A DNA stretch of 64,000 bases. It comes from a virus. Shown one piece after another: positions 7,773 through 37,758 of the stretch. Location: positions 32,001-96,000 of the IMG/VR virus record IMGVR_UViG_3300045988_184160; one strand, given 5' to 3'. How positions within the stretch are numbered: position 1 is the first letter of the stretch; the number at the start of each line of letters is the position of its first letter. A program made the position numbers and the translations under genes. A model generated the notes under the pieces. It was not told the DNA's origin and did no database searches. It saw nothing but the letters and a program-made list of their open reading frames with translations.

Positions 7773-9611
7773 ATGGTGACAAGCAAATCAAGAACCACGA
7801 AAGAAAGAACCATGAACCAAGAAAACAGCCCAGGAACAGCACTAGCAAACGCGAAATTTCGTGCCCTTAACGCGCGTTTAAACGCCGCCGAGAAGGCGAA
7901 GGAATACTTGTTGGAGCGTCCCACGGACAAGAAGCGCACCTTCTTTGAGGAATATTCCAACTGCGGCATCCCTCAAGCTAAACTTGCGAACGACCCTAAA
8001 GCTTCCATGCTGGTCTATATCCCAAAAATTGTTCTTAACCCCGAATGGTTCAAGAAACCTGTTGTGGAGATGCAGGATAACTACGACAACCTGTCACTTG
8101 CGGCGTATCTTCTGCATAAGGTCACTGATCCTGAGAAGCAAGTCAAAGGTAAAAACGGTAAGAAATTCCCTGCGAAGGTAGCTAATATCCGCTGCACAGC
8201 GCACACAAAAAAGGAAAAGCTGCATAAGATTTTTGCAGATTTCAAAGCTGAGGGGATAGATCTAGGGTATCCCGAAGATTTTGAGGGTTGTCTAGTCTGC
8301 GAGGAGGGCAAGAAGCTTCAAAAAACTTTCTGGGGTACGGTAGATGACACTGGCGTGGTTTATTCCGACCCGAAGGTTTACCCGTATCTAGAGCAGTGGA
8401 CAGCTGAATTTGTCATGAATAAGCTCAACGGTGAAGAGCTTGACCTTAAAAACCCTGAACAAAAGGGCGCGTTGCACAGTTATATAGGTGCCAAGATTAA
8501 AGGGGTAGATCCTAATCTAATCAAGACTCTTGGAAATGCGCATGGCGGTTCAGTTCGCCCCATTAAGAGTGCTAAAACATCAGAAGGTTTCCCAGCTTCC
8601 CGCTTCGTCGTCCCAGTTTTCGTGATTACGGCAAAGCAGGAAAAAGTCACTAGGAAGAGCGCAGCGGGTCTTGAGCGCACCTTCATTGAAGACGTCCCTG
8701 TCTATAATGAGGATGGGACCCCCGCCGTTCAGCTGATGTTCCTTGATTTAACCGGCAAATTCTTGATTAATAATTTCGTCAAGAAGTACGCTAAAACTGT
8801 TGCTAGTGAGTCATCCTCAATGAACCAAGAAACCGAGGCTGATTTCATCATCGGGAAAGCCTATAGGCATGCTCTTGAGCGCGGAGATAGTGAGGAAGAA
8901 GCGAAGGAATACTCGAACAAGATTTGGGAACTTAAGAAGACGCTCCCTAATTCTTTTGGGGTTATTTCGCATAGTTCAGTCTCAGATAATGGAGTGGAAT
9001 TTAAAGAAGGATACACCTTTGATCGCCATAACTGGGATAGGGAATTAGATGATGTTTCTGGTTTCAATAACCCAGAGATCGTGAAGATCCGCGAATACTG
9101 CAACCATATTGCAGAAAATTTCTCTATACCTGGCGATGAGAGCGGCAAGACTTGGGCGCTGACCGGTAATATTGTGCAGATGCTTGTGAATGACGCAAAT
9201 CTTAAGCATTACAATGAGATCAAACAGCTCATTAAGCCTGTTGTGGATTATTGGGAAAAGCACCATCTTGAGGTTATTCAGAAGAATCGCGCATCTTATG
9301 GTGCTGGCTCTACTGTTGTGGAGCCTGAACCTAGGAAGGGTGTCATGTTCTCTGCTCGTCGCCAGAATGTGGAGGAGTCTAGCGCCCCTGCCCCTGAGGT
9401 TACCGAAGCCCAGTGGCTACCTCTTGAGCCTCCGGTTCCCGCGACACCAGCTGCCCCTGTTATTCAGGCGCAACCCGAGCCTGCAGCAGTGGCTTCTGCT
9501 AGTGTGCAACCTGTACAGCAGGTGGAAGACCCGATCCCTGCCGCCCAGAGTAACCCAGTAAGTAAACCTGAAACCACCAAAAAATCAGGTGAAGACCCTT
9601 TCCCCTTTTAA
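7773..9611 (+). CDS. hypothetical 612-aa protein with a P/A-rich linker and an SSB-like acidic C-terminal tip
   Basis: Long ORF; an alternative start is the ATG at 7812. C-terminus ...PEPAAVASASVQPVQQVEDPIPAAQ...GEDPFPF*. Confidence 0.6.
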   Translation: MVTSKSRTTKERTMNQENSPGTALANAKFRALNARLNAAEKAKEYLLERPTDKKRTFFEEYSNCGIPQAKLANDPKASMLVYIPKIVLNPEWFKKPVVEMQDNYDNLSLAAYLLHKVTDPEKQVKGKNGKKFPAKVANIRCTAHTKKEKLHKIFADFKAEGIDLGYPEDFEGCLVCEEGKKLQKTFWGTVDDTGVVYSDPKVYPYLEQWTAEFVMNKLNGEELDLKNPEQKGALHSYIGAKIKGVDPNLIKTLGNAHGGSVRPIKSAKTSEGFPASRFVVPVFVITAKQEKVTRKSAAGLERTFIEDVPVYNEDGTPAVQLMFLDLTGKFLINNFVKKYAKTVASESSSMNQETEADFIIGKAYRHALERGDSEEEAKEYSNKIWELKKTLPNSFGVISHSSVSDNGVEFKEGYTFDRHNWDRELDDVSGFNNPEIVKIREYCNHIAENFSIPGDESGKTWALTGNIVQMLVNDANLKHYNEIKQLIKPVVDYWEKHHLEVIQKNRASYGAGSTVVEPEPRKGVMFSARRQNVEESSAPAPEVTEAQWLPLEPPVPATPAAPVIQAQPEPAAVASASVQPVQQVEDPIPAAQSNPVSKPETTKKSGEDPFPF

Positions 9612-9659: not shown

Positions 9660-11265
9660 TCAAATAAGGCTGTATAACTTACGTTTGTAAGCCGTGTTTC
9701 CTTGTTTGTGTGCCGCCTTACTGGTCTCCGGGGTGCCGTGTGCACCCCGGTCCGCTAGTACGGTGGTCACCAAGTAAGTTGCTTGTACCCTAGCGGGGCG
9801 AGGAGGAAGAATCACCCCCTTAATATTGTGGTGGTTCTTCCTTTTTGGTGTTGCTGTGTGTTTAGTCCTGTCGCGACTGGGATATTTCAGAGAAGCCCGC
9901 GCGGGCGGGGTTTTCAAGGCAACCTGTGGTTGGAGTTTACGGTTCTTAGCACGGGTTTTCCTAGCTTTCTCAACCTTGGGCACAGCACGGGCAGCGATAT
10001 TCGCGGCTGCGTTCACATCCCTGTCCATTACACCATGCATCGGGCAGTCCGAGACTCTATGAGTAGGATGCGCAACACGAGAATCGCAAGCATGACACAC
10101 CTGTGAGGTGTTTGCCGCGTTTACCGATACAACCCACCCGCCGTTCTGTGACACATAATGGGTAAGCCAGTTAATGAGTTCACCGCGATTCCACCGCCCA
10201 TTCTGCATTGTATTAGTGACCCAGCTGAGGTCTTCCACCGCAACAACCGCGTTACCCCACAGGTGAGATAAATCAGCTATCTCCTGGGCGGCTATAATGG
10301 CTAGTTCCCGTTTCTTACGGGAACTAGCTCCACCGCGAAGCTAGTTCCCGTTTCTTACGGGAACTAGCTTCGCGGTGGAGCTGTGCTTCATCCAGTGCTG
10401 ACATCCGGGCTTGTCTCTGGTAGAGGAGACTGTCTGCTTTCTTTTTAAGGAATCGTACCTGTTTCTCAGAAGCTCTGACACTGTTCCAGAGTGAATGAAC
10501 ACGCTGAGCAAGCGTGCCTTGGTAGACTATCTGCCCTGTCTTAGTGTTGCGAACGACGACGGTGGCGTAGTTATTAATACCAGCATCCACACCGATAACG
10601 TAATCACCTGAGAACTGGACGACAGGGTTATCTGTTGCTACTGTGAAGATGAATACGGGCTGGTTATTCTCGACTTTCACCAAAGGTAGGGTTACTTTTC
10701 CCTCCGGGAAACGGGTGTTATCAAAGCTGAAAATCAGTCTGTACCGTTCACCTTGGATAACCATCTTAAGAACGATTTCCCCATCAGCAAAAGGGTTGTT
10801 CTCAATCACAGCATATTGCTTGTCTACGGCACCAAGGTTAATGTAATCCTCGCCATATGACGGCGCAGATGCATCCACAGTGCGTTTCCAGCCTTGAGAA
10901 ATATATTTAGATGAGGAGCCGTTTACGGCTTTGACACGCTCCTGCCATGAACGATACTCAGTAACTACGCGATGTCTAACTAGCCACTCTTTACGTGATT
11001 TGCCTGTCCTCCCAGTTGCTAGGAAGTCAGGCATGGTCACACCTGCCCGACGACCCGCAACGGCAGGTTGGGTGACGGTAACCTGGGACAGTTCAGACCC
11101 TAAGGTGGTGTCGTTACGAACCACGTAGGTGGCGTAAGCAGAGATACCCTGAACCTCAGAGACAAGCTTAGCTAAAACAGGGGTGCTATCCAGTAGTTCA
11201 CCGTTCAGATTCAGGACGTGAGAAGGGTGCGCCACGAAAGCCTTATAGGTCCGATTCTTAGCCAA
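9660..11265 (-). pseudogene. tnpB: tnpB (RuvC-like RNA-guided nuclease family), interrupted by a 40-nt insertion that causes a frameshift and stop
   Basis: Two ORFs, 10324-11265 and 9660-10238. RuvC-I IGVDAGINN, RuvC-II AVEDLSWV, Zn-finger/RuvC-III CHACDSRV...CPMHGVMDRDVNAAANIA. Translating across the gap restores ...SSRKKRELAIIAAQEIADLSHLWGNAVVAVEDL once 40 nt are removed. Confidence 0.85.
10300..10380. repeat. quasi-palindromic duplication inside tnpB
   Basis: 29-nt direct repeat GCTAGTTCCCGTTTCTTACGGGAACTAGC at 10300-10328 and 10340-10368. CTCCACCGCGAAG (10328-10340) is the reverse complement of CTTCGCGGTGGAG (10368-10380). Together, 10328-10380 forms a perfect 23-bp stem with a 7-nt loop. 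Confidence 0.9.
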
Positions 11266-11281
11266 CGCACCCCACCTTTCC

Positions 11282-11902
11282 TTACTTATCGTCTAGTTTC
11301 TTGGACACATCATCAATGAGTTTACGCTGCTGCTCCCAGCCCCTCAAACGGTAAAACTTGCCGCTAAAGGACGCGAGAAGCGCCATGAAATCCTCCATCA
11401 GAACCGCGTGGGGCTCACGGGTTTCAGGGCTATCCAGGACAGTCACCTCAGCACCATAAGCTGTAAGAAGCTCCGTCAAATAGGTGAAACCAAACCTAGT
11501 GAGCCTAGCCTGATTGGTCACAAATACCCTGACTTTACCCTCCTCAGACTTTACGTCCCTGATGAGAGCTTTAAGACCTTTACGTTTCTCGTTAAGACCA
11601 GAGGCTTTATCTTGAAAAACCTTGTCCGGCTCACCATAAGCCGCCTTCAGCTTCTCCAACTGAGTTTCAATGAGGACATCATCACCGTTAGAAGACCTTA
11701 CATAGAAAAAAGTCTTACCAGCATCAGGCTCAAGCCCCAGCATCTCCCTCTTGAAATCTTCAAGCTCAGACGGGTAGAAAACCTTTTCCCCCGTAATTGA
11801 TACATGGTAACCCAACTTACCGCGCTGACACCAGGCCCTAACAGTAGAAGGCGATATACCTAGAAACTTAGCAGCTTGCCCTACTCTTAGATAATCCTTC
11901 AA
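11282..11902 (-). CDS. tnpA: IS607-type serine recombinase transposase (MerR-like HTH + resolvase catalytic domain)
   Basis: 206 aa. N-terminal HTH YLRVGQAAKFLGISPSTVRAWCQRGKL. Catalytic-Ser region FFYVRSSNGDD. Resolvase-like core ...VFVTNQARLTRFGF. Confidence 0.88.
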   Translation of the reverse strand: MKDYLRVGQAAKFLGISPSTVRAWCQRGKLGYHVSITGEKVFYPSELEDFKREMLGLEPDAGKTFFYVRSSNGDDVLIETQLEKLKAAYGEPDKVFQDKASGLNEKRKGLKALIRDVKSEEGKVRVFVTNQARLTRFGFTYLTELLTAYGAEVTVLDSPETREPHAVLMEDFMALLASFSGKFYRLRGWEQQRKLIDDVSKKLDDK

Positions 11903-12040: not shown

Positions 12041-12829
12041 GTGCAAATAATGTCCACGATAGATAAATTCACACAAAAAACAGTTTTCAGGCCCGAGCAG
12101 GATTATTTCTACCGTCTACCCCCACCAGTTTTCTCTGATGATGTTGCGGTTTTCATGGGCGGTGTCCTGCAGCATAAGGACGACCTCACCGCTTATGACC
12201 GTGAGCTTCTTCGAGGGTACCAGCCGGATAGTGAGCCTGATGAGCCGGTTTTGACGATTGTGAAGGACGGTGACGGGTATTTGTGGTCTTTACTGAAAAT
12301 CTTGATGGTTCCGGTGTTGTCCACGCTACTGTTTCCCGCGTTGAGGTGGGTTGGGGTGGATTTGACTGTTGGTCCGCTTCTGTGGGTCCTGTCGCTGTGT
12401 TTCATCTGGGTTGTGACTGGGTTGTATGCTCTATGGTTTTTGCAGGGGTATACGCAGAAGCATCTTGCGTCGCTTTATGTTTATTCTGTGGCTGAGGATG
12501 CGGAGGTTATGGAGCGCCGGCGGTTCCTTATTGGTGAGTGTGAGCGGTTGAGTAAGGAAATTGAGGGGTTGGAGTATCAGCGGGATAAGGTTCTTGAGGT
12601 GCGTAAGGCTGAGTTGGAGGCTTTGCCTATTAGTGTGGTGACTGTTGGTTCTCGCGTGGTGAGTAGGGACGCGGCGGTTGCTGATGTTGTGGGTGAGATT
12701 GGGCGTGTTGGTGCTGAGATTGAGGTTTTGAGGGGTAGGTTGTCGGGGTTGCAGGATTCGTTGGCGTATTCTGCTTTGGCGTTTTTGTCGTCTGATGAGG
12801 GGAGCCGTAGAGCGTATCTTGCGAAGTGA
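12041..12829 (+). CDS. membrane protein with a C-terminal coiled coil, function unknown
   Basis: 262 aa; GTG at 12041 or ATG at 12050. Three hydrophobic segments (LKILMVPVLSTLLFPAL, LLWVLSLCFIWVVTGLYALWFL). Heptad-like ERLSKEIEGLEYQRDKVLEVRKAELE. Strongly G+T-rich. Confidence 0.55.
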   Translation: MQIMSTIDKFTQKTVFRPEQDYFYRLPPPVFSDDVAVFMGGVLQHKDDLTAYDRELLRGYQPDSEPDEPVLTIVKDGDGYLWSLLKILMVPVLSTLLFPALRWVGVDLTVGPLLWVLSLCFIWVVTGLYALWFLQGYTQKHLASLYVYSVAEDAEVMERRRFLIGECERLSKEIEGLEYQRDKVLEVRKAELEALPISVVTVGSRVVSRDAAVADVVGEIGRVGAEIEVLRGRLSGLQDSLAYSALAFLSSDEGSRRAYLAK

Positions 12830-12979: not shown

Positions 12980-14074
12980 ATGAGTACATACTCAAAAATC
13001 AGGTGTATACGCCTCGAAAATTTTATGGGGTACCCCGACCAGATAATAGACTTCAAAAGTAAACCTATCCTGCACATCACGGGTGACAACGGCACCGGAA
13101 AATCAAGTGTCATACGCGCCCTAGAAGTTGCTTTCTGTGGGCGGCATAGTAGACACAAGAATAAGCTGATCCGCAAAGGGCAGACGAAAACAACTATCAC
13201 CCTCACCCTAGAAGACGGCACCCATGTAGAATACCTTCGTCAAGCAAGCGAACTAGCCCGCAAAGGCAGAACAGCCGCCTTGAAAGGTACCGAATCCTAC
13301 ACGATCTACCGCTACCTAAACAAGGATGGTGGGGTGGTGACCTTTGAGGGGGACACCACCCCAGACCCCACAGGTGTTACGAAGGAAATTCTGTTCACCA
13401 CACGGGACGGTGACACTCTCATCCCCGTAACGGGCATACCCCTAGAGGTAGAGAAAATCACGGGGTTCCTTTTCTCGTCACTCAACGACCAGGATGTTCC
13501 GTTGAATGTGGGCACAAGGAACGATCCCACGTTCTTGGTTGAAACCGCTGGTAGAGACAACTATAAGACAATGATGCTCCTCGGTGGGGGCGCTACCGTC
13601 ATAGAGGCCCAACAGAACATTCATGAGAGGATCCTCAAACAGAGGCGCGAAGATAAGGACGCGACCTCCAAACTTGAGTTTCTGTACGGGAACATCACCG
13701 AAGGCAGCATCCTATCAGATGAGGTGCCCAGCAAGCTCAACGACCTCATAACCAAGTTAGAGGCCCAGCAGGCGAACTATGAGCAGGTGAAAAGGTTAGA
13801 AGCCGCACTGAGGAAGATCGTCTCAATCAAGGTGCCGCCGAAACCACCGGAGCTGCCAGATATTGAGTCCCTGAAAATGGTTCTACGGCTCAAGAAGGCA
13901 GTGGAAACACTCATGCACTGGGAAGCGCAGGTGGAAGCCCGCACCCAGAACATGGTGGCAGAAAAACAGCGGATGCAAGGAATCCAGGACGCCATGAGAC
14001 AAGCAGGGGTACACGCCCTAGACTGCTGGAACTGCGGGGCGACAAACACTCTCAGCCTCACACAACACGCCTAG
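12980..14074 (+). CDS. Rad50/SbcC-like SMC-family ATPase, N-terminal half (Walker A head lobe + coiled coil + CxxC hook)
   Basis: 364 aa. N-terminus IRCIRLENFMGY...ILHITGDNGTGKSSVIRALEVAF (Walker A at nt 13082-13105). Long heptad region. CWNC at nt 14034-14045, 9 residues before the stop. Confidence 0.75.
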   Translation: MSTYSKIRCIRLENFMGYPDQIIDFKSKPILHITGDNGTGKSSVIRALEVAFCGRHSRHKNKLIRKGQTKTTITLTLEDGTHVEYLRQASELARKGRTAALKGTESYTIYRYLNKDGGVVTFEGDTTPDPTGVTKEILFTTRDGDTLIPVTGIPLEVEKITGFLFSSLNDQDVPLNVGTRNDPTFLVETAGRDNYKTMMLLGGGATVIEAQQNIHERILKQRREDKDATSKLEFLYGNITEGSILSDEVPSKLNDLITKLEAQQANYEQVKRLEAALRKIVSIKVPPKPPELPDIESLKMVLRLKKAVETLMHWEAQVEARTQNMVAEKQRMQGIQDAMRQAGVHALDCWNCGATNTLSLTQHA

Positions 14075-14095
14075 AAAAACATTGAGACAACGAGT

Positions 14096-15259
14096 ATGAA
14101 ACACAGAGAACATAAAACATTCAACGGGTCAGCCCTCATATTCGGTGACCTGCACCTATTCGTGAAACAAGACCACCGCCGCCCCACAGGGTTAAGCTCA
14201 CACAAAGACTACAACGCCAACAGTAGGCACAACATGCGGATGGTTCTGCGGCAGATCGAAGAGTTCCAAGGCGCGCACCCTGGGGAGCCTCTGATGGTGT
14301 TCTTCCTCGGGGACCTGTTCGGTGTGGATCAGCACGTGCTGACCGATAACACGCAGAGGTCAGAGGCAGCAGAGTTCCTGTCCACCATCAAGAACCTTAC
14401 GGGGCACCCCGCTCAGATGGTGTGGGGTAACCACGACCGCAGTTCACAGCAGGTCTCCGAGTCTGATCTTTTCATGCAGCTTGGGTTACTGGAAAACCCG
14501 TCGTGGGTTGATTTCACTGATGCTGACGGTAATATTCATTGGCGCTGGCACCTAGTGAACAATAACGACTATGAGCAGCCTATCCCCACGGTCAGGCACG
14601 GGGCACCGTCCGACATGGGCACCAAACCTGATGGTGGTAAGGCGCGCCGGAAAACCCTGCCTACGGTTGAGCATGTGGCGAACGGTGTGCTTGGGCATAA
14701 CCATTATTATGCGGGTGAGGATATGCGCCCGCATCCTGGGGGTGGCTGTATTGATTTGACGACTCTCGAATCTTTCAAGGATGTTATCGCTGTTATTTAT
14801 GGGGATACGCATGAGCCGTCTAGTGACGGGTTCTACCCGTACACCTTGAACTCTGCTGGTGCTGGGCATGAGCGTTACGCTATGGGGCTTGGTTCACCTG
14901 CACGTACTTCACGAGCACAGGATTATGAGGATGCTTATGTGATGTGGTTCTTGTCCCCTGCTGTGTCGGGTGGTGAACGGTTTGATTTTGAGGTTCACCG
15001 GTTTGGTGCGCGCCCTGCGTCTGAGGTTTTCCTTCCTGAGGAGAGGACTTTGCTTAGGGATGTGGGTGGCGTGGTTCGTGAGGCTACGGATGATGAGCGT
15101 CGGACGATGCGGGGTATTCTGCAGGGTTTGAACGGGAAAACGTTTGATGGGGAAAATATTTCTTCTGCGATAGACGAGGTTCTAGCCGACGACCTGCTAG
15201 CTGCGCGAGTAGCTAAAGCCCACATACAAGCAGTACGGGACACCCACGCCGCCGGATAA
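14096..15259 (+). CDS. Mre11/SbcD-type calcineurin-like metallophosphoesterase (nuclease)
   Basis: 387 aa. Ordered motifs FGDLHLF, FLGDLFGVD, WGNHDR, LGHNH, YGDTHEP. Confidence 0.8.
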   Translation: MKHREHKTFNGSALIFGDLHLFVKQDHRRPTGLSSHKDYNANSRHNMRMVLRQIEEFQGAHPGEPLMVFFLGDLFGVDQHVLTDNTQRSEAAEFLSTIKNLTGHPAQMVWGNHDRSSQQVSESDLFMQLGLLENPSWVDFTDADGNIHWRWHLVNNNDYEQPIPTVRHGAPSDMGTKPDGGKARRKTLPTVEHVANGVLGHNHYYAGEDMRPHPGGGCIDLTTLESFKDVIAVIYGDTHEPSSDGFYPYTLNSAGAGHERYAMGLGSPARTSRAQDYEDAYVMWFLSPAVSGGERFDFEVHRFGARPASEVFLPEERTLLRDVGGVVREATDDERRTMRGILQGLNGKTFDGENISSAIDEVLADDLLAARVAKAHIQAVRDTHAAG

Positions 15260-15310
15260 ACCAATAAGTTTTACATAAAAACCTTTTGAACGGAAGAAGA
15301 AGAAGAGAAA

Positions 15311-16015
15311 ATGACCCCAGGAAACACAGGACAGGACATCCTGAAAGAATACGCCGCCACCCAAGCGAAGCTCAAAGAAATCGAACGTGAACGCGACCTC
15401 GCGGCACGGGACTTGGAACGAGCTAAGGCTGAGCTGCAGCAGATCGACCAGGAAATGAGGGATGCTAAAAACTACTCCCCCCTCGATGACATGCAGGAAA
15501 GAGGCGGGGCAGAGGCTTACCTAGCTTTCGTTATAAACTGGGTATCCCGCATGGAAGAAGCAACCCGCGAATCCATCACAGAAGCTAACCAGATCCTCGA
15601 AGCCTACAGGAGCGGTAACCTGACCGCGCTGAACGAGCTGCTGGGGGTTGAGGCGTCTGGCGAGATACCTGTTGAAGGACCGAGCGTTGAGGTTGCTGAC
15701 GGCACCGTACCAGCTGTGAAGTTTGAGGATGTTGCACCTGCTGGGTACAGTGCACCGGAAGAGCCTGTTTCCCCTGCCGTGGTTGCGGTGGAGGAGCCAG
15801 TAGCAGCGAAGCCGGAGCCCAGCCAAGCCGCGAGCGCACCCGCCCTCAACTGGGGAAACAGCAAAAACGACAGCACCAGCAACAACCATAACGGCACCCA
15901 AGACCCTTGGGAAAACTCAAATAACAACGGGTGGGGGTCTAACCTCTTTAATGACGGGGAAATGGGTGACCCAAGCGGATTCTTCTCCGAAGGGAATGAG
16001 CAGAACCATGAATAA
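15311..16015 (+). CDS. coiled-coil protein with a low-complexity tail, function unknown
   Basis: 234 aa. N-terminal heptads (KLKEIERERDLAARDLERAKAELQQIDQEMRD). N/S/G/W-rich C-terminus. Overlaps the next start (ATGAATAA). Confidence 0.5.
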   Translation: MTPGNTGQDILKEYAATQAKLKEIERERDLAARDLERAKAELQQIDQEMRDAKNYSPLDDMQERGGAEAYLAFVINWVSRMEEATRESITEANQILEAYRSGNLTALNELLGVEASGEIPVEGPSVEVADGTVPAVKFEDVAPAGYSAPEEPVSPAVVAVEEPVAAKPEPSQAASAPALNWGNSKNDSTSNNHNGTQDPWENSNNNGWGSNLFNDGEMGDPSGFFSEGNEQNHE

Positions 16016-16934
16016 CACACTCAGCAGGGAACTAACAACCACCCTCAACAACCTACGCGCCACCCAAGCAGCATACGCCGAGAAACTAAACACCCACCAC
16101 ACCAACATCAGCACCTACAAGCAAATCCAACGGGACAGGGCATACAAGCGTGAAGTGACCCGTGTACTCAGTGCAGCGAAGCAGGGGCTTCACAAGGTGC
16201 AGGAGCAGACGGGGGTTGAGGTACGGGAGTTCGTGACCGATGTTATCAATAAAGCTATCCAGAACCTCTTCCCCAAAGAGAACCTGCGCATCTCCATTGT
16301 TGCCAACGACGAGAAACCAACCAAAACCAGGGCACGCAAGACCAGTAGCACACCCGCGATGGTTTACAAGCGACTAGATCTTGAGGTTGCTGGCACTGAC
16401 GGTGAGCCTATGAATGTCGCTATCCAGGTTGGTTCTGGGTTGCAGGACCTTATTTCTTTCCTGTACCGTGTCGCCTTGATTTCTGTGTCGTCGGGCAGGA
16501 AGCTTCTTGTGAGTGACGAGCTGCTGCACGGTTTGGCGGTTGATCGTTTCAAAGATATTGTGGGTATCCTGGATTTGTTCACTGAGGAAGGTTTTCAGTT
16601 CATCATCATTGAGCACGGGCTGGACCCGTCTCTGTGGGGTGGTAACGCCCGTGTCCTTGAGACGGTCAGGTCTAATGGGTGCTCAAGTTTGGTTGATGTG
16701 ACTGGGGAGTATTCGGGTGGCAACAGGGTTCTTGAAGAGCTCAAAGAATCTGTTGAGAATGCAGTGAAACAGGCTAAGGAGGCGCATGAAGCTAACCCCG
16801 TTGAAGATTCTGAGCCACTAGAAACTATAACCACCACAACTAAACCCGATAAGCAAGCAAAAACAAAGGCAGATAAAGAAAACCCTGCTCAAGAAGAATT
16901 AAACATGGCACCACCCAACATGTTTCAAGACTAA
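16008..16934 (+). CDS. Rad50/SbcC-like ATPase, C-terminal half (coiled coil + signature / Walker B / H-loop lobe)
   Basis: Start trimmed to the ATG at 16008. N-terminal ~90 aa are heptad-like. Then QVGSGLQDLISF (signature-like), RKLLVSDELLHGL (Walker B/D-loop) and FIIIEHG (H-loop). Confidence 0.65.
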   Translation: MNNTLSRELTTTLNNLRATQAAYAEKLNTHHTNISTYKQIQRDRAYKREVTRVLSAAKQGLHKVQEQTGVEVREFVTDVINKAIQNLFPKENLRISIVANDEKPTKTRARKTSSTPAMVYKRLDLEVAGTDGEPMNVAIQVGSGLQDLISFLYRVALISVSSGRKLLVSDELLHGLAVDRFKDIVGILDLFTEEGFQFIIIEHGLDPSLWGGNARVLETVRSNGCSSLVDVTGEYSGGNRVLEELKESVENAVKQAKEAHEANPVEDSEPLETITTTTKPDKQAKTKADKENPAQEELNMAPPNMFQD

Positions 16935-16993: not shown

Positions 16994-17026
16994 ATGCCCA
17001 AAAAACAGGGAAGGGAAGGACACAGA

Positions 17027-19009
17027 ATGCCGCAACTCAAAGACACCCTAAAAAAGGCGCTGGGAGGTGAGCTCCTAGAAGGTGAAGATGGGATGAACTA
17101 CGGGGCTTACTCCCCTAACGGTGTGCGAGCAATAATTATTCTGAAAGACCTCATTTTCATTGACTACCACAGGGGGTACCCTGGGAACCACACTATCAAA
17201 GAAGTAGCGGGATGGTCACCAGCTGCTTGGCGTCTCAACCCTTCCCAAGTGATGCTTGAGCTACCCAAAGGGAACGCGCTACCTAATGGTGCAGCGTATG
17301 ATCCAGTGGAGCGTTACTACTACCAGAACACTGGTGAAGAGAAAATGATTGTTGCCGCACCCCAGTCGGACGGTGTACTATGCGATTTTCTGGACAGGGA
17401 ACCTGTGGGTTCATCCTATTCTAAGCTGCTGAGGCTCTTGACAGATTACAAGAATTTCTTCACTCTCGAAGAAATACTAGTTGACGAAAACCTAGGCATC
17501 AACATCAATGATTATAAGCGCCCCGAGGGGAGCAGGCTACGCAGGATAGGTTACGTTTCTCGGGACGCCTACAATTCTGGTATCGACAATGAAACGCTGG
17601 GGAACATGCTCACTCAATACCGCAAAGAATCCGAGCAAGTTACCCCTTATGAGTCACTGTTCTCAGATTTTTTCACTGATAAGTCATGGGAAGCGAGTAA
17701 CCCCCGCGCCACGGATCAGCAGGTTTACAATACGGAGGGTGAAGGTGAGTGGTTCAGGAAACATATTTTAGCCCCTAAACACTACTCGTCCGATATTGTT
17801 GGTGGTAAGCTATACAAGCATTTCCTGGAAGCCACCAAAACCCTGAGTGCAAAGCACGGTGGGTCTAATGCATCAGCTGACGTGTCCCCTGAGCAGGTGC
17901 AGGTCTTGGAGACGTATGCCTCCGCTATCCAGAAGGACACCAAGGTTTACGGTGAGGTTGAAGAGCTATTCACCGTGCTTCAACGAGACTCCCAAAACAA
18001 CGGTGAGTCAGAGGTCAAGCACCTGTACGCCACCCATGTCCTCAACGTCCTAACCGGTGGGAACCACGGGCGACTGTCCCCTAAATACGCTAACACACCC
18101 ATACCGATGCTCAGGTGGGCTGTCGAACAATGCTTAGGCAGGGAATACTATGCCACCCAAAACCAGGGAAACAACGACACCGCGAAACTGCAAGAAAAAT
18201 ACGGTGCCCTAGATCAAACCTACAGCCAGTTAGGTTTATACAACCCAGCCGACGCTGATAAAAATGGTGCTAGCTTCCCCAGCCTCAACGAAAACCCCGC
18301 GATCCTCAAAGCAGAAAAAGAGAAAACCGGTATCCTGCACACCGTGATCTTTGAAGCACTCTACGGGGGTATTATCCTGATCGTTGAAGACGCACGGCAG
18401 AAAGGGGTGCAGGTCCAAGCAACAGACATCATAGCGGAAGCCCACCCGTCCCAGTTCGTCCCAGCATACGAGTCGTTCCTGAAACGAATCAGCAACGTGT
18501 GGGACGACCCCACCAACCTAATCATCAACCAGCTCAACGAGGCACTGCGGGGTATCATCACCCCAGCGGAAGCACGAGAAGTTGCGGGTATCCTGAAACG
18601 TCTACCTGAAGATGTCCAAGTATACCTGAAAGACCGCGTATCCATAGAAATGGATGGCAATAAACTCCCTTACATTGACAGGTTGGAACCCTTTAAGAAC
18701 CATGAAACATGGGCTACTTTCAAAGAATATAACTACGGTGAGACAACACCTAAAAACCCTGCAACGCAGGGCATCCCACCAGCTGAAACACTCGCTTACT
18801 TATCCCCTGGGATGATTCTCGCTAGGGCGGCAATGAAAACATCCCCCAGTGAGGTATACAACAAGTCCAATATTGGGCGCTGGGTGGATGAGTCAGCGGT
18901 TGGGAGCGAAGAGAAAACCAAGCGGATCCGCAAGATAGGGGAACTTATAAATAAAGGAATCCAGCTACGCCAAGGAAACTATGCAGCCAACACAGGGGAG
19001 GGGCAGTAA
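17027..19009 (+). CDS. hypothetical protein (660 aa)
   Basis: Start moved to the ATG at 17027 (GGAAGGA RBS), because the ATG at 16994 abuts the terminator T-tract. No family recognised. Confidence 0.55.
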   Translation: MPQLKDTLKKALGGELLEGEDGMNYGAYSPNGVRAIIILKDLIFIDYHRGYPGNHTIKEVAGWSPAAWRLNPSQVMLELPKGNALPNGAAYDPVERYYYQNTGEEKMIVAAPQSDGVLCDFLDREPVGSSYSKLLRLLTDYKNFFTLEEILVDENLGININDYKRPEGSRLRRIGYVSRDAYNSGIDNETLGNMLTQYRKESEQVTPYESLFSDFFTDKSWEASNPRATDQQVYNTEGEGEWFRKHILAPKHYSSDIVGGKLYKHFLEATKTLSAKHGGSNASADVSPEQVQVLETYASAIQKDTKVYGEVEELFTVLQRDSQNNGESEVKHLYATHVLNVLTGGNHGRLSPKYANTPIPMLRWAVEQCLGREYYATQNQGNNDTAKLQEKYGALDQTYSQLGLYNPADADKNGASFPSLNENPAILKAEKEKTGILHTVIFEALYGGIILIVEDARQKGVQVQATDIIAEAHPSQFVPAYESFLKRISNVWDDPTNLIINQLNEALRGIITPAEAREVAGILKRLPEDVQVYLKDRVSIEMDGNKLPYIDRLEPFKNHETWATFKEYNYGETTPKNPATQGIPPAETLAYLSPGMILARAAMKTSPSEVYNKSNIGRWVDESAVGSEEKTKRIRKIGELINKGIQLRQGNYAANTGEGQ

Positions 19010-19015
19010 ACAGGC

Positions 19016-22000
19016 ATGAGTGAAAACAACACAAACGAGAACCTGCGGAAACTAGGTGTGAACCTGATCCAGCAGGCGCTACAAGAAGACAAGCTAAAGG
19101 ATCCCAACAACACTGCGCTCTCCCCGAACAATGTGCGTGGCATAGAGTTCCTTGGTGCTGACGGCATCAAAATCGTTGAGCACGTGAGCGGCGGATACTC
19201 AAAATCAATAAGCTCAGCAATGGACGATTTTGACTTGAACGCAACCAACGCACTCACCAAAGAGGACATACGAAGCATCTTCGGTAGCAGGAAATACGGC
19301 AACCTGGAATACGTGCACGTCGCCGACAACATGCAGATCATGGGTGCCACAGGGAAACCAGCTGCAGCAGGTATAGCGGCAGTACTGAAAACCATCACCA
19401 GCAGCAACGGCGCGCCTTGGTACGGGCGGCTCCACCAAATAAACGGTGAAGAAATCCCCGACACCGCAGGGTGGGAGAACCACAAGTCCCTAGAACCTGA
19501 AGCATACGCCTTCGACGCGAAAAGCCAGCTCGGGAAAAAACTCAACATAGAAACCACACCAGCACCCGAAACTGAGACTACCGTACCCGAAGCAGAGAAA
19601 CCAGAACAAGAAAAAACACCCCAAGAACTCGAAGTAGAACAACGAGTCGCAAAGATCAATAAGCATTTCAAAACCCAGATTAATGGGGCGATCAAGTTTC
19701 TTCTTCAAAAATATAAGATGATGTTCGCGTCAGGGTTTGATTTGGTCCAGCCCGCAGGCGTCCCGTTCCCAGATGATACGGGAACGGTCATTCTGCGCAC
19801 TATTAAAGACGGGAAGCTCACCTATGCAGGTGATGATCCTGTTGCAAAAGGATACTTCCGTGAAATAGAGAAACTATATGAGAATATCACTGACGCATCA
19901 GGTATCAAAGTAGCAAAAGCACGTAGTCATCATGAAATCATTAACCTAGCCATTCAAGGGGTAGACGTTGATCCAAACACTAAACTGGGAATCCCAGGTA
20001 GAAACCTTCGTGTCACACTCCCCTACAAAATGCTGGAATATGCATACGGTACACAAGGGGCTATCTCACAAACCCGCACACTGACAGATGAAGAGAGGAT
20101 AAAATACACCCCCTCAAGCATTAATGCTTGGGAAGAATACAGTACCCATGTAATCAGGAAAGACCTAAATACTCTTTTCTCATCCCTAGGTTACACTGCA
20201 CTTGTAAACGAAAAGATGCAGGATGTCTATGATGATAACCGCCGCAGTACAAGGAAAGAAAAAGATAAAGCTAGCAAGATTATTTCCACACATATTGAAA
20301 CCCTGAAATGTATGTTAGCTAGCACAATTATCATCCCAATCTTCCAGCAGATAGACAACGAAACTATCGCTGTTAAAGCACGTGTGCTTGATAACTACAC
20401 GGACTGGTCTAAGATCCGACAAGATCAGATTCGGCGAGCTATAAAAGACACGGATGTTGAGCTTGATAACAGTGACGTGAAATCGTATCCACCTGTGTAC
20501 GATGGGGAGTCTTTTAGTGAGTACCGTATAGACCTGAATACAACGCTTGCTAATGCTGAACCAGTGTTTGCTTATAAGGCTCTGCAGCTGCTCCTCGCGA
20601 AGGGGGAGAAGCTGACGTTTGAGAACGCCCCTTTAGGTGTTGATACAGACGGGAATATTGTCCGAAACGGAACACATTTCAGTTTAAGCACCTACCTTTC
20701 CCATCTTGTGCTTGCAGCTTCCCGTTCAGGTAAAGGCGTGTGGACTTCCAATATTCTTGCTGCCTGCATCATCTCTGGACGCCCAATATTTTACCTAGAT
20801 AATAAACCAGATATTGGTGATAAAGTAGCTGACGCATCAAAAATCAACGGATCGCCAACTGCTTTCGTTGTAAACGGGGGTAATCTAAACCCGCAAAGCC
20901 GTGACTCTGGGACACATTTCTTTGGGAACTGGAATGATGCTAACAGCTGGATTAACACCGATCATATCCCTAGCTATTTAAGAAGCCTCAACATAGATAC
21001 GAGGACTTACAACGGTACTGTGGGAACGCTCGTATATCTCCGTGGCATGCTTCTTTTCCTTGGAATCATTGCTGCCCGTATCGTCTACGGGCAGGGTGAA
21101 GTATATGAGAAGCTTGGCGGTAAAACAGGCATCGTTGGCGTGTTCGATGAGATGGCCATTTTCTCTAAAGAGTTCCTTGCCCTATTGAAAGAACTCGGGA
21201 AGAAATACCCAAACCTCAAATATTGGCAGGCATACCAGCAAGATCCGAACATTGAAGGCACCAAACCCCCAGCTGAGAGCTATTGGTCTTACCTGCTAGT
21301 GAAAGCCATTAGTGAAACAGCGACTAGAATATTCAATCTGAATAACGCGGGTGGACAGAACGGAGAGAATAGGGTCAGTGATATATTCATCATCTCACAG
21401 GACTTTTTTGCCCTATCAGATGGTGGAAATAGTACGCCTGGGGAAAGGGCTGAGATTGCTAGGCGTCCTGGGCAAATTTCCAGCGTCAGCATGAACGCTA
21501 CTGACAAAAAAGGGAACACGGGTGCGTTGATCCCAATTCATCAAGACATTATTTTTAATATGCTAATGGCTCTTGGAGGAGACGCCTACCTTGGTGTGCA
21601 TAATGAGGTGAACCATCTTGGGCACAAGAATCCAAACGGGAAAACTAGTAACTACATTAATACACAAGCTCGATACTTTGGACGAATAGCACCATATCCT
21701 GTTGATGGGGTCAGGGAAACTAGGGCTGCTATCAGCTCAGAGGATCAGAAAATGACGCTCTATAAGCCTGGGCTTCTAGTAGCAGATTCTAGTGTGGAAA
21801 ATGGCGAAGGCTATAACGCGAAATACACTTATTTCTTAGATAACCTCTCTTCCTATGTTAAAGCTGCTGGCGCGGATCTGCCAGATATTATTAGCCGGAA
21901 TGAAGATCCTATTAGGAAAGGTACTTTCCACCGTGCTACTGCATTGAGTGAGTACCTAGAAATGGCGGGTGTCAGCAGGGAAGAAACAGCTAAAAGACTG

Positions 22001-23569
22001 TCAAAATCTGGTAACATCGCCCAGTTTGTTGTTGAAGCCTTAGGTTACAAGGGTACTTGGCGTGATTTCCTCCTAGATTTCCGTCCACAATGGATTTTTA
22101 GTGCGGAAGACATTATAAATGCGCTCGACTCAAACGATGCGATAACCCTACCTGTCTCATACACTGTTGATGGTGCAACCACCAAAGCAGAACTTATTAA
22201 GGAGATCAGGACTCTTCACCCTGACTTTTTTGGTGACGAGAACAGTGGTTTCGGTTCATCTGCTTCTGGTGAGGGGTCTGAGGTAGATGGTGGTATGGTG
22301 TATATCGCTGGTTATGGGATGTCCCAGGATGGTGTGAAAGTTGGGGGTTCCACTAATCCTGTGGGTATTGAGGATACCGAGCTCTCCGAGGACATGGAGG
22401 AGCCCGAAAATAGCAACTACGGCGATAATGATATAGAAGACGTATCATACACCAAACCAGACCATGAACCAGAGGAAGACACGGCAGAAGAACCAGAGGT
22501 TCATGCTGAAACCATACCGGAAGAGCCGATAGTGGAAGATATTGCCGCACCCATCTACGAGAACGCCAAGAACAGCATCAACGCCGATCCTGACGAGTGG
22601 GAAACCGCCAACCAACCCAGCGAGGAATACACGGAGACCGCGCCTCTGGAACCTGTACCCCAGTATTCGGACGGCTCAACAACCGACGAGTACGGGGACA
22701 GGGTTTTTGGTGCATCCACTCGCGCCCCAGAAGGGTATGCTGGCTCTGATACTGATTACCGCGAACGGGCTCAGCAGTCCCAGTCTTTCAAGAATCCGCC
22801 TAAGCACTCTAAAGGGTTTGACCTGCCGCCTATGGGGTTCGACCCGTACAGCATTGAGTCTTTCGACAAAGTGTATGACACGGTTACTGACGCTATTATT
22901 CGTGCCGCACTGGGTAAGAATAGTCAGGGTATTATCGCCTTGTCCATTAAAGATGGGGATGTGATCGTGAACGGGCTCCAAGTGCAGGTGAACACTCAAC
23001 CTGGTGACCTGATGTCGATGCAGGATTCTTTACGGAACCAGCTCACGACTGGGAAAATTGGTGGGCTTATCAACTGGAAGAAGCTCATTACATACATGCG
23101 CTCGGTTGAGGCTTTGGAGTTCTCCGATCTTCCTGATGCTAGGGCGGCTGCTAAAGCAATGCTCAAGGATAAGGATATTTCGGTTGAGCATTTCTTTACC
23201 CGCGTGAGGTCTCTGCAGCTTTTGACGCTGGTTACGAAGACTTACACGAGGCAGGATTATCGGGAGCAGCTTGAGTCTACACCGCAGTTCTATAACCGGA
23301 CCGCTTTTGAGAGGGTTGAGAAGAAGTTCCGGGAGGGTACACTCTTTGGTGCTTCGAAGAGTTTCGCTTATGCGCGTGATCGTTTCAGGCGTAAGGGCGG
23401 AATAAATAAGGTTGTTGGTGTGGGTGCTGGTGCTTTTGGCGCTTTACTGAGGTCTGTTGCTGCGGCTTCTAGGCTGTCGAAAGGGACTGCTAATTTGGGT
23501 GCGCGTATTGCTGTCGCCAATAGGATGGATCGGAGGTCTAGGAGTTATTCTGAGGGGCGTGATATTTAG
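19016..23569 (+). CDS. giant (1517-aa) protein with a central FtsK/SpoIIIE/TraB- or T4CP-like P-loop NTPase module
   Basis: PLGVDTDGNIV...SHLVLAASRSGKGVWTSNIL (Walker A at nt 20726-20740). GIVGVFDEMAIF (Walker B at nt 21139-21150). Acidic low-complexity region at aa ~1100-1250. Hydrophobic VVGVGAGAFGALLRSVAAA near the C-terminus. Confidence 0.6.
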   Translation: MSENNTNENLRKLGVNLIQQALQEDKLKDPNNTALSPNNVRGIEFLGADGIKIVEHVSGGYSKSISSAMDDFDLNATNALTKEDIRSIFGSRKYGNLEYVHVADNMQIMGATGKPAAAGIAAVLKTITSSNGAPWYGRLHQINGEEIPDTAGWENHKSLEPEAYAFDAKSQLGKKLNIETTPAPETETTVPEAEKPEQEKTPQELEVEQRVAKINKHFKTQINGAIKFLLQKYKMMFASGFDLVQPAGVPFPDDTGTVILRTIKDGKLTYAGDDPVAKGYFREIEKLYENITDASGIKVAKARSHHEIINLAIQGVDVDPNTKLGIPGRNLRVTLPYKMLEYAYGTQGAISQTRTLTDEERIKYTPSSINAWEEYSTHVIRKDLNTLFSSLGYTALVNEKMQDVYDDNRRSTRKEKDKASKIISTHIETLKCMLASTIIIPIFQQIDNETIAVKARVLDNYTDWSKIRQDQIRRAIKDTDVELDNSDVKSYPPVYDGESFSEYRIDLNTTLANAEPVFAYKALQLLLAKGEKLTFENAPLGVDTDGNIVRNGTHFSLSTYLSHLVLAASRSGKGVWTSNILAACIISGRPIFYLDNKPDIGDKVADASKINGSPTAFVVNGGNLNPQSRDSGTHFFGNWNDANSWINTDHIPSYLRSLNIDTRTYNGTVGTLVYLRGMLLFLGIIAARIVYGQGEVYEKLGGKTGIVGVFDEMAIFSKEFLALLKELGKKYPNLKYWQAYQQDPNIEGTKPPAESYWSYLLVKAISETATRIFNLNNAGGQNGENRVSDIFIISQDFFALSDGGNSTPGERAEIARRPGQISSVSMNATDKKGNTGALIPIHQDIIFNMLMALGGDAYLGVHNEVNHLGHKNPNGKTSNYINTQARYFGRIAPYPVDGVRETRAAISSEDQKMTLYKPGLLVADSSVENGEGYNAKYTYFLDNLSSYVKAAGADLPDIISRNEDPIRKGTFHRATALSEYLEMAGVSREETAKRLSKSGNIAQFVVEALGYKGTWRDFLLDFRPQWIFSAEDIINALDSNDAITLPVSYTVDGATTKAELIKEIRTLHPDFFGDENSGFGSSASGEGSEVDGGMVYIAGYGMSQDGVKVGGSTNPVGIEDTELSEDMEEPENSNYGDNDIEDVSYTKPDHEPEEDTAEEPEVHAETIPEEPIVEDIAAPIYENAKNSINADPDEWETANQPSEEYTETAPLEPVPQYSDGSTTDEYGDRVFGASTRAPEGYAGSDTDYRERAQQSQSFKNPPKHSKGFDLPPMGFDPYSIESFDKVYDTVTDAIIRAALGKNSQGIIALSIKDGDVIVNGLQVQVNTQPGDLMSMQDSLRNQLTTGKIGGLINWKKLITYMRSVEALEFSDLPDARAAAKAMLKDKDISVEHFFTRVRSLQLLTLVTKTYTRQDYREQLESTPQFYNRTAFERVEKKFREGTLFGASKSFAYARDRFRRKGGINKVVGVGAGAFGALLRSVAAASRLSKGTANLGARIAVANRMDRRSRSYSEGRDI

Positions 23570-30075: not shown

Positions 30076-31512
30076 TTGTCTAACTTTATTAACCGAGGAC
30101 CGTTTAAAGGTATCCGTGGTACCGCCCGCGCAGACGGCACTTTCCTCCTAGAAGAAGTCGGTGTTTCTATCGACATCGGCAACTCTGAAACTAAGGCTGT
30201 TGTTGTTCTTCAGACGATTGATGGGCCTATAAAGCCTATTTATATCCCCATTACGCTGCCCAATACTTTCATTCGTGAATCCACTATCCCACTCGGTGAT
30301 GAGGTCTTCCCGGATGAAAATAATGAAGAGGTGCGTTCGTGGCGTTTCTATCCTTGTGGTGTCTACACTGCAAAGAACGGACAAGAAATAGATCTATCCC
30401 AAGAAAATAATCAATACGGCAAGCAGGCGTACTGGGATGCTGGGCTTAACGTCGAGATCAACGAATCATCGGGCAACGGGACAGCTCTCCCTGCAGGGAG
30501 TTTCACCCCGAAGGTAAACACTATGACCACCGTACTAACCCTTAACCTTGTTTTCGGTGAAGTGTACCGCCGTATTAGCAAAAAATTCGGGGTCTCTATT
30601 GAGAATTTTGATATTGTCTTCGCTAAAGTGGGCGCAATGTTGCCTCCCAAGGAGTTTAGGGATGAGGAGACTCCCAACAGTGGGCAGATGCTCCTCAAGA
30701 AGATGATCCTGTCAGTCAAAAACATTGAGTTTGCGTACCCACAGATCAGTAAACCAATTATTCTTAAAGACGGTATCAATAGTTTAGATATCAAGCGAGA
30801 AGGATACCCAGGTTTCTACTATACCCTGTTTGAAAGAATGGGTAAGGGGGTTTCTAAGCAGCGCAAGTTCTACTTTGAAGAGGACAAAAAGACTGGACAG
30901 AGAAGCAGTATCCTCCTCAGGCGTTTGTGTGTAATCATCGACGTTGGAAGTGGAACCTCTGATATCCTCATTTTCAAGGACGGTAAAATCACAGGTAGTC
31001 GCGGTACCGTTCCTTATGGTGCTAAAAATGTTGCTCTACATGTGCAGGGTAAGCTTGGGCTTGATGCGGTCTCCGAAGAGGACGTTAAAAACGGTTACGT
31101 GACTATGGGCAACGACCATAATATTGATATTAGTGCCGCAATTAATGATGGACGCCGAGTTGTTGCTGGGAAGATCATGTCTAAACTCTCGGATATTATC
31201 ACAAGCTCCGGTTTCAGTCTTGATAATGTTGCCTCTGTCCTAGTGATTGGTGGAGGGGCGATGACTTTTGAATCTTCCCGAGCTTATGAGGAGTCCACCC
31301 CTCACAGTGGTGAAGTGAAGGTGAAGATTCTCCCCATTAGCAAGTTCTTCAAGACAGAGTTCTCCCAAGTCGCGCAATATGCTAAGGTTCTAGACCTTCC
31401 TCTAGAGTCCTACCAGGATTCCGGGGTTCGTCCAACCGACCCGCGTATGATGAATGTTTGTGGCATGGCTTTCATCCTGCATCATCGCATCACCACTGAG
31501 AGCACAGAGTAA
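30076..31512 (+). CDS. actin-like ATPase of the ParM/Alp family
   Basis: 478 aa, TTG start. Phosphate-1 SIDIGNSETKAVVV (nt ~30169). Phosphate-2 VIIDVGSGTSDILIF. Adenosine motif VLVIGGGA. Confidence 0.75.
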   Translation: MSNFINRGPFKGIRGTARADGTFLLEEVGVSIDIGNSETKAVVVLQTIDGPIKPIYIPITLPNTFIRESTIPLGDEVFPDENNEEVRSWRFYPCGVYTAKNGQEIDLSQENNQYGKQAYWDAGLNVEINESSGNGTALPAGSFTPKVNTMTTVLTLNLVFGEVYRRISKKFGVSIENFDIVFAKVGAMLPPKEFRDEETPNSGQMLLKKMILSVKNIEFAYPQISKPIILKDGINSLDIKREGYPGFYYTLFERMGKGVSKQRKFYFEEDKKTGQRSSILLRRLCVIIDVGSGTSDILIFKDGKITGSRGTVPYGAKNVALHVQGKLGLDAVSEEDVKNGYVTMGNDHNIDISAAINDGRRVVAGKIMSKLSDIITSSGFSLDNVASVLVIGGGAMTFESSRAYEESTPHSGEVKVKILPISKFFKTEFSQVAQYAKVLDLPLESYQDSGVRPTDPRMMNVCGMAFILHHRITTESTE

Positions 31513-37755: not shown

Positions 37756-37758
37756 GAT

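Follow-up and report, generated by a model that had tools for sequence, protein, structure and literature searches.

A phage SbcCD-type gene cluster whose ATPase is probably built from separate polypeptides, cut just after a CxxC motif

The closest described counterparts of the genes discussed here are the SbcCD/Mre11–Rad50 systems, represented by SbcC–SbcD of Escherichia coli, gp46–gp47 of phage T4 and the archaeal Rad50–Mre11 proteins. They share an ATP-binding cassette (ABC) ATPase with an N-lobe bearing the Walker A motif, a C-lobe bearing the signature, Walker B and H-loop motifs and a coiled-coil arm with a CxxC(G) motif at its far end, together with an adjacent gene for a calcineurin-type nuclease that has all of the Mre11 motifs and a C-terminal helical tail. 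SbcC and SbcD have been described as core recombination proteins that nearly all jumbo phages possess, with no mention of a split form (Iyer et al. 2021, PMC7824862). It is still debated in what way the Rad50 coil and hook communicate with the head of the ATPase and with the Mre11 nuclease, and a natural cut in the protein after the hook bears on this question. Here we describe such a cut in viral DNA, namely in positions 32,001 to 96,000 of IMG/VR record IMGVR_UViG_3300045988_184160 (64,000 nucleotides, nt; hereafter the window). At 12980-16934 the window encodes what is probably an SbcCD-type complex, set, as in the known systems, among phage replication and recombination genes. All of the features named above recur, but the ATPase of the window family consists of at least two polypeptides, is cut 4-27 amino acid residues (aa) after the CxxC, has its putative hook at a free C-terminus and bears an arm that cannot be an intramolecular hairpin. 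The arm in the window is in addition short (~140 aa) and broken by Pro and Gly, there is an extra conserved coiled-coil subunit, and the C-lobe protein is too diverged for profiles of Rad50 or of the SMC (structural maintenance of chromosomes) family.

The locus comprises four open reading frames (ORFs), all confirmed on the plus strand and called A to D here:

12980-14074, plus strand: A, 364 aa, probable N-terminal half of a Rad50/SbcC-type ABC ATPase
14096-15259, plus strand: B, 387 aa, SbcD/Mre11-type calcineurin-like nuclease
15311-16015, plus strand: C, 234 aa, accessory coiled-coil protein
16008-16934, plus strand: D, 308 aa, probable C-terminal half of the ATPase

The first-pass annotation of the window had described them as tightly spaced ORFs on one strand, which is borne out by gaps of 21 nt between A and B and 51 nt between B and C, and by an ATG of D that overlaps the end of C by 8 nt. 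A promoter scan of the operon region returned no promoter-like site, and the sole terminator-like match on the plus strand inside the operon (16431) lies within the coding sequence of D, over the signature motif, so that a transcriptional break in the operon is not evident. The four-gene arrangement is far beyond chance. It is kept at 49-64% identity (~30% for C) in other contigs and at 23-29% in a much wider family. Contigs from independent samples, among them IMG/VR contigs (243 kb and 263 kb) and European Nucleotide Archive (ENA) scaffolds (254 kb and 111 kb), show these four genes in unchanged order between syntenic flanks, and the relatives at ~50% identity, on IMG/VR viral contigs of 243-263 kb, also keep the same gene lengths. 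In a collection of 5.8 billion proteins the homologues of A form three clusters, each of exactly 364 aa (96%, 85% and 49% identity), those of B form two clusters of 387 and 388 aa, and those of D form 13 clusters of 306-309 aa which, bar one fragment of 230 aa, stand alone as proteins of this length. Word-seeded protein searches with A, D and B reached this clade only, and the wider family was recovered by an exhaustive profile search. No match was found by DNA and protein BLAST of the locus, B and D against GenBank phages (50,697 records), nor for the A-family members P0024 and P0045 in the same phages, and the clade was not found in GTDB genomes.

Protein A holds the features of the first half of a Rad50-like chain:

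13082..13105, plus strand: Walker A motif (P-loop) GDNGTGKS, A aa 35-42, the same G, N, G and K standing in all 40 sequences of a family alignment
13592..14005, plus strand: arm of A, heptad-repeat helices at aa 205-241, 251-283 and 298-342, with Gly/Pro-rich breaks between them
14024..14035, plus strand: CWNC, putative zinc-hook motif, A aa 349-352, at a nearly free C-terminus

Its Walker A N-lobe is recognised by Pfam AAA_23 (4e-14), more weakly by SMC_N, AAA_15 and AAA_29, and by the SbcC-like PHROG family phrog_77 (9.7e-13). Searches against the PDB retrieve Rad50 N-lobes (2e-4, or 3e-5 with a profile), and the archaeal Rad50 models of NCBIfam match at 3e-13, over the N-lobe only and far below the family cut-offs. 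The three heptad segments all score above the 99th percentile of shuffled sequences in a crude heptad scan, and a low-confidence AlphaFold2 model places helices at nearly the same positions (aa 204-240, 248-281 and 295-341). The sequence CWNCGATN is invariant down to 49% identity and both Cys residues are invariant across the wider family alignment. An N-lobe with Walker A, a coil and a CWNC had been proposed for this ORF and all three stand, although the CWNC does not lie 9 residues before the stop as had been stated, 12 residues following the second Cys. The arm ends in this CxxC, which is closely followed by a free C-terminus and is a putative zinc hook.

Protein D supplies what A lacks:

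16431..16445, plus strand: signature-like GSGLQ, D aa 142-146, with Q140, G142 and G144 invariant in both clades
16503..16520, plus strand: Walker B LLVSDE, followed by the D-loop GL, D aa 166-171, with D170 and E171 invariant; aligns with the UvrA Walker B
16602..16616, plus strand: H-loop IIIEH, D aa 199-203; aligns with the UvrA H-loop

The start of D is the ATG at 16008 (MNNTLS), which is common to the homologues; an in-frame ATG upstream, at 15951, is not conserved. An N-terminal coil (aa ~1-87) is followed by the ABC C-lobe and by a clade-specific disordered tail that ends in PPNMFQ. The motifs QVGSGLQ (aa 140-146), LLVSDE (166-171), the GL of the D-loop and IIIEHG (199-204) are invariant in 12 homologues, which upholds the coil, GSGLQ, LLVSDE and IIIEH first read here, and their order and spacing (signature, Walker B, D-loop, H-loop) are those of a canonical ABC protein. 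On its own D matches no family significantly in Pfam, PHROG, PADLOC or NCBIfam, and its sequence matches in the PDB are to ABC C-lobes only (UvrA, Walker B to H-loop, E 0.004-0.02). A C-terminal ABC lobe with signature, Walker B, D-loop and H-loop, as Rad50/SbcC proteins have, is present on D.

Walker A occurs only in A and the C-lobe motifs only in D, a coil adjoins each lobe, and genes for an SbcD-type nuclease and a coiled-coil protein always accompany those for A and D. The reading that we favour, at a probability of roughly 0.77, is that the four genes encode the SbcCD/Mre11–Rad50-type end-processing and recombination complex of a phage of ~250 kb, with the ATPase made from separate polypeptides. 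In this complex A would give the Walker A lobe and an ascending arm ending in a CxxCG knuckle, and D the lobe that bears the signature, Walker B, D-loop and H-loop, preceded by a short descending coil. An antiparallel coiled coil at the arm base could join the two into one ABC head, and two such heads would engage around ATP. In vitro, N and C halves of Rad50 that were expressed separately have long been used to rebuild its catalytic head, and head assembly in trans is therefore physically plausible. A dimer of B might use its C-terminal helices to bind the heads and the base of the coil, the tips of two A arms might be joined by one Zn ion held by two CxxC motifs, and C would be an accessory subunit, probably with two helices packed on the distal stretch of the A arm, which would otherwise have no partner, and with a flexible tail that carries a short aromatic docking peptide. 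The complex would presumably act in phage replication and recombination.

Protein B carries the motifs GDLH (aa 17-20), GDLFG (72-76), GNHD (111-114), GHNH (200-203) and GDTHE (236-240), which correspond to Mre11/SbcD motifs I-V with their metal ligands; the earlier call of a complete calcineurin-type nuclease gene at 14096-15259, with all metallophosphoesterase motifs, is therefore sound. The protein is very divergent and alone finds no match in Pfam. An alignment of nine diverse family members shows GDxH, GD, GNHD, GH and G(D/H)xH to be invariant, and a profile made from the B family gives 11 best PDB matches that are all SbcD, Mre11 or metallophosphoesterase (MPE) entries, with weak scores, headed by Staphylococcus aureus SbcD (7dog, 1e-3), Thermotoga maritima Mre11/SbcD, MPE and Pyrococcus furiosus Mre11. 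A profile from close homologues only had no PDB match, and distant family members had to be added. The orthologue on contig L010 is matched by Pfam Metallophos (1.2e-13) and by the SbcD-like phrog_100 (3.9e-10). By PDB profile and phrog_100, albeit with weak scores, B is closer to Mre11/SbcD than to other metallophosphoesterases. An AlphaFold2 model of B (mean predicted local distance difference test score, pLDDT, 59; predicted template modelling score, pTM, 0.62) retrieved only metallophosphoesterases with Foldseek, among them E. coli SbcD (7yzp_A), at a resolution that does not separate Mre11 from 5'-nucleotidase or LpxH. Conserved helices are predicted near the C-terminus (aa ~332-385), and they appear to sit where Mre11 has its Rad50-binding helix-loop-helix.

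In L001, and also in L002-L004 of the clade at ~50% identity, the reading frame of B has no stop from position 11089 on and its translation is conserved from there (L001:11089-11179, …GSVIVFGDLHLF…), with no ATG, GTG or TTG before catalytic motif I. The start in L001 is likely an ATT at 11107, 8 nt after a Shine-Dalgarno sequence AGGTGG. Gene callers began B of this clade at a downstream Met, by which motif I is lost. Contig L019 (P0018) has a B ORF of 388 aa with a canonical start.

The split is not confined to the window. A search of 1.84 billion representative proteins with a profile of the A alignment gave 175 matches at E <= 1e-10. Among the matches listed, 148 representatives lie outside the window clade, and all but two of these (146/148) are 350-501 aa long, with a median of 399. 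The CxxC lies 4-27 residues (median 11) before the C-terminus in 146/146, and a G follows the second Cys in 132/146, giving a consensus C-x-N-C-G that resembles the CPxCG knuckle of Rad50 and SbcC hooks. The best 150 matches include no fused full-length Rad50-like relative, and A and D are separate proteins, not one polypeptide, in every relative whose contig reaches D. That the ATPase is cut just after its CxxC, as first noticed in the window, applies equally to these 146 representatives and to the Bacillus phages described below, and as to whether homologues are fused or split at the same point, the representatives listed are all of half length, with none fused among the best 150. The split is a family-wide ancestral state and not a local oddity.

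Gene neighbourhoods were read on nine IMG/VR contigs of 41-232 kb (seven of them >118 kb), on Logan contigs of up to 237 kb and in bins of metagenome-assembled genomes (MAGs) from Lachnospiraceae, Oscillospiraceae and Mogibacterium. A B-like gene comes next after A in every relative from the profile search that was read on a contig continuing past A. As far as contigs reach, hidden Markov models (HMMs) of the window proteins and their relatives place the genes in the order A-like (380-422 aa), B-like with Metallophos (339-360 aa), C-like (175-315 aa), usually a beta-clamp gene (~380-407 aa) and D-like (223-259 aa), the D-like proteins downstream of A-like genes being matched by the D-family HMM at 1e-39 to 1e-114. 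The protein of ~380-407 aa is a divergent homologue of the beta sliding clamp (PDB 1vpk, 1.4e-3, and 8dt6; phrog_947 'processivity factor', 6.9e-5), and its gene lies between the C-like and D-like genes at the following places:

L009:10117-11268, beta-clamp gene
L010:10899-12041, beta-clamp gene
L040:11002-12225, beta-clamp gene
L044:10803-11972, beta-clamp gene
L020:12959-14152, beta-clamp gene

No clamp gene separates C from D in the window clade, and a search of the whole window (64 kb) gave none. Proteins C end in SGFFSEG here and in GGSFSWDN or GGEFNFGD elsewhere, and D in PPNMFQ; speculatively, these terminal peptides of C and D may be motifs for docking to a clamp or another partner. 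On a 236 kb contig of a Mogibacterium MAG (L023:7989-8853 and 14290-14968) the A-like and D-like genes each appear as two overlapping ORFs in different frames, which is probably a frameshift error of that assembly and not biology.

Among GenBank phages, tblastn with family members found matches in Bacillus phages only, and these clarify the relation of the two halves. Prophage phBC6A51 of Bacillus cereus encodes BC1852, an 'Exonuclease SbcC' of 518 aa that ends ...GGVCPLCESPMSFDHSH, then two small helical proteins, BC1853 (100 aa) and BC1854 (77 aa), and then BC1855, annotated 'Chromosome segregation ATPases' (211 aa), with an N-terminal coil, RGGGV, LFLDEVG and ILITHS; BC1857, an 'Exonuclease SbcD', is located after this D-like gene. 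Phage vB_BboS-125 has the same split in gp32, gp34 and gp35, and no SbcD-type nuclease was identified in the stretch read. In the jumbo phage 0305phi8-36 the protein gp8 (L006:4978-7287, 769 aa, annotated 'DNA repair exo subunit 2') has a Metallophos domain (aa 10-240) fused to an A-like half, in which AAA_23 begins at aa 343 and a CPTC stands 17 aa before the stop; next come gp7 (a coil of 92 aa), gp6 and gp5, a C-lobe protein of 236 aa annotated 'chromosome segregation ATPase'. By its sequence gp5 is the missing C-half to the N-half in gp8.

The A-family HMM matches the A parts of these phages and of the prophage at 1e-19 to 1e-28, and the D-family HMM matches gp5 and BC1855 at 1e-5 to 3e-3. 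Aligned with hhalign, the D family and gp5 give E 3.3e-4 over 134 columns, and the signature-like motif of D aligns with the RGGG(I/V) of gp5 and BC1855. The same program found no match to the single sequences of E. coli SbcC and T4 gp46, an uninformative result given the low power of single-sequence templates. On phrog_77, which has 967 positions, BC1852 covers 298-780, an A-like protein from IMG/VR covers 297-631 and BC1855 covers 870-935 (E 9.4e-8); since BC1852 and BC1855 fall on different parts of this profile, the Bacillus halves are complementary parts of one SbcC. PHROGs v4 files them apart, with the N-halves in phrog_16465 ('exonuclease') and probably phrog_1499, and the C-halves in phrog_15167 ('ATPase'), and their relation as two halves of one ATPase is not noted in the Bacillus phage records or in the literature searched.

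The Bacillus sets resemble the window in an N-half that ends with CPLC or CPTC 8-17 aa before the stop, in the helical ORFs, in a C-lobe protein of 211-236 aa and, for phBC6A51 and 0305phi8-36, in an SbcD-type nuclease within the same cluster. They differ in their longer arms (A parts of 430-518 aa), in their canonical C-lobes (RGGG, LDEVG, ITH) and in the place of the nuclease, after D in phBC6A51 and fused to the N-terminus of A in 0305phi8-36. What the lineages have in common is the succession of A, one or more small helical ORFs and D. An Mre11/SbcD gene in the gap between the halves, to which attention was first drawn, is real in the window but is no defining trait, the varying position of the nuclease making it lineage-specific.

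Several observations weigh against the favoured reading. No Rad50, SMC or SbcC profile recognises D, whose link to SbcC is transitive and runs through weak matches. The coils are of unequal length, with 40-87 aa in the N-terminal coil of D against ~140 aa, divided into three segments, in the arm of A, so that simple antiparallel pairing of A with D cannot cover the A arm. An AlphaFold2 prediction of fused A and D, from a shallow unpaired alignment, was unusable (mean pLDDT 38.7, pTM 0.26). The H-loop His is replaced by Tyr (FQF[IV]M[IV]EYG) in a whole IMG/VR subfamily (D-like proteins of L009-L017, e.g. L010:12090-12773), a substitution that could mean altered or weak ATP hydrolysis; elsewhere the position is His, as IIIEHG in the window clade and as the canonical I/V-THS/Q in the Bacillus phages. 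Finally, 44/146 tails have at least two extra Cys or His after the CxxC, some as CxxC...HxH, and some members may accordingly form an intramolecular Zn knuckle and not an intermolecular hook.

The mismatch of the coils brings in protein C, for which no family match was found. The 234-aa coiled-coil ORF that had been called at 15311-16015 does show a strong signal in the heptad scan, at aa 8-58 and 67-116, followed by low complexity; the tail is a disordered linker rich in acidic residues, Pro and Asn that leads to a conserved C-terminal aromatic peptide (WGSNLF...SGFFSEG). Of the four proteins C diverges fastest (~30% identity), retaining between clades its N-terminal helices, E.GN...A.ELLG and the aromatic peptide, and relatives have C-like ORFs at the corresponding place. 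We consider it doubtful, though conceivable, that the ATPase is divided in three, colinear with canonical Rad50: A would be the N-lobe, ascending arm and hook, C the distal descending coil, and D the proximal descending coil and C-lobe. The two helices of C (51 and 50 aa) would then pair with A 298-342 and 251-283, and the tail of C with its aromatic peptide, together with the clamp gene between C and D, might point to a complex tethered to the phage beta-clamp. Consistent with such an arrangement are the gene order A, (B), C, D, the three-plus-three heptad segments and the small helical ORFs between the halves in Bacillus phages. Were it true, an SMC-like arm would be made of non-covalent pieces, with a hook that needs one strand only.

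A different question is whether the module, however assembled, serves the phage in recombination or in conflict. The first-pass annotation had held repair and defence to be equally likely, a balance that the genomic context does not support. The window encodes a UvrD-family helicase (25992-28079), a RecJ-like DHH exonuclease (28128-29966) and an actin/ParM-like partition protein (30076-31512), and the neighbours in relatives include dUTPase, Toprim, beta-clamp and UvrD genes; this context favours recombination and replication over defence. That the genes form a defence or counter-defence SMC–nuclease module, Lamassu-like or otherwise conflict-related, is unlikely. The idea draws on the best PADLOC match of A, which is LmuB (3.8e-14, aa 6-341), like A a short-armed ABC ATPase derived from SbcC, on the proposed descent of Lamassu from SbcCD (PMC12663957), and on conflict-type genes elsewhere in the window, namely a set of FHA, PP2C and kinase genes and an IS607-like element. 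Similarity to LmuB is, however, expected of any SbcC relative. In Lamassu the ATPase LmuB is one polypeptide and has LmuA effectors and LmuC as its partners, whereas the partner here is a complete SbcD/Mre11-type nuclease with all catalytic motifs in a replication context; PADLOC gave no match to LmuA or LmuC for B, C, D or the neighbouring genes, and none for B, C or D that would assign them to a system. The module is moreover syntenic across deeply diverged phages, beside beta-clamp, dUTPase, Toprim and UvrD genes, and does not lie in a variable island.

It is very unlikely that A and D work independently, with A a half-ABC or RecF-like DNA-binding protein with a zinc knuckle, D a separate small ATPase-like protein, and no head shared between them. 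The failure of Rad50 and SMC profiles on D and the unequal coils would suit this explanation, and the subset of tails with CxxC...HxH does resemble an intramolecular Zn site. Yet A has Walker A only and D the remaining motifs, so that an ABC ATPase can be made by neither on its own, their genes always occur together and in one order, and in Bacillus phages the halves map to complementary parts of one SbcC profile. An error of sequencing or assembly, or a frameshift, in a conventional sbcD–sbcC pair, as had also been entertained at first, can be dismissed as the source of the split, and so can recent pseudogenisation of such a pair. Nothing was found in favour of either, and against both stand a stop after the hook, a separate start of D and protein lengths that are conserved at 85-96% and at ~50% identity in independent samples and assemblers, the same split in 146 representatives and in finished Bacillus phage genomes, catalytic motifs that are all invariant, and the lack of a split-intein signature at the C-terminus of A or the N-terminus of D. 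A split intein or 'fractured gene' was likewise considered and rejected: only 12 aa follow the CxxC, D starts with a coil, and the window has no homing endonuclease between the halves.

An assembly of the SbcCD/MR kind is well known, and what is new in relation to the literature searched is the split-at-hook architecture, its breadth and the extra subunit. A search for 'split Rad50/SbcC' and the like, outside of which lay the ABC-ATPase classification of Krishnan et al. 2020, found no such report. The split is kept in ~150 diverged protein clusters from phage and metagenomic contigs, which would make covalent continuity through the apex dispensable for the function of these complexes; either a free C-terminal hook suffices, or the CxxC has another role. 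With its 364 + 308 aa the system is small, comes naturally in two pieces and is directly testable, and cultivable Bacillus relatives exist. Annotation can also be corrected, the halves being recorded at present as 'exonuclease SbcC', 'chromosome segregation ATPase' or 'hypothetical', and as they are filed in unrelated PHROGs families, surveys of phage SbcCD will miscount them.

Several other features of the window may be recorded. Directly downstream of D, at 16994-23569, are two large ORFs of 671 aa and 1517 aa without a family match; they are syntenic in all clade relatives (658-661 and 1516-1525 aa) and fused into one of 1925 aa in L004, and the 1517-aa protein contains a P-loop-like AASRSGKG. 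A 576-aa ORF at 31622-33352 matches the coiled-coil part of phrog_77 weakly (positions 658-792, E 1e-3), with no Pfam match and no visible ATPase motifs reported, and is probably just a coiled-coil protein. Genes for an FHA protein, a PP2C phosphatase and a Ser/Thr kinase lie in a row at 35822-40071, followed at 40556-45448 by one for a protein of 1630 aa with bacterial Ig-like domains. Upstream of the operon, an element of the IS607 family occupies 9660-11902 on the minus strand, between genes for proteins of 612 aa (7773-9611) and 262 aa (12041-12829). Its TnpA (11282-11902) has a MerR-type helix-turn-helix and a Resolvase domain (3e-17), and its TnpB appears broken into ORFs at 10324-11265 and 9660-10238, the latter with a Cas12f1-like TNB domain (7e-14). 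The two flanking genes are adjacent in L005, a contig on which A is 96% identical, and the insertion therefore looks recent.

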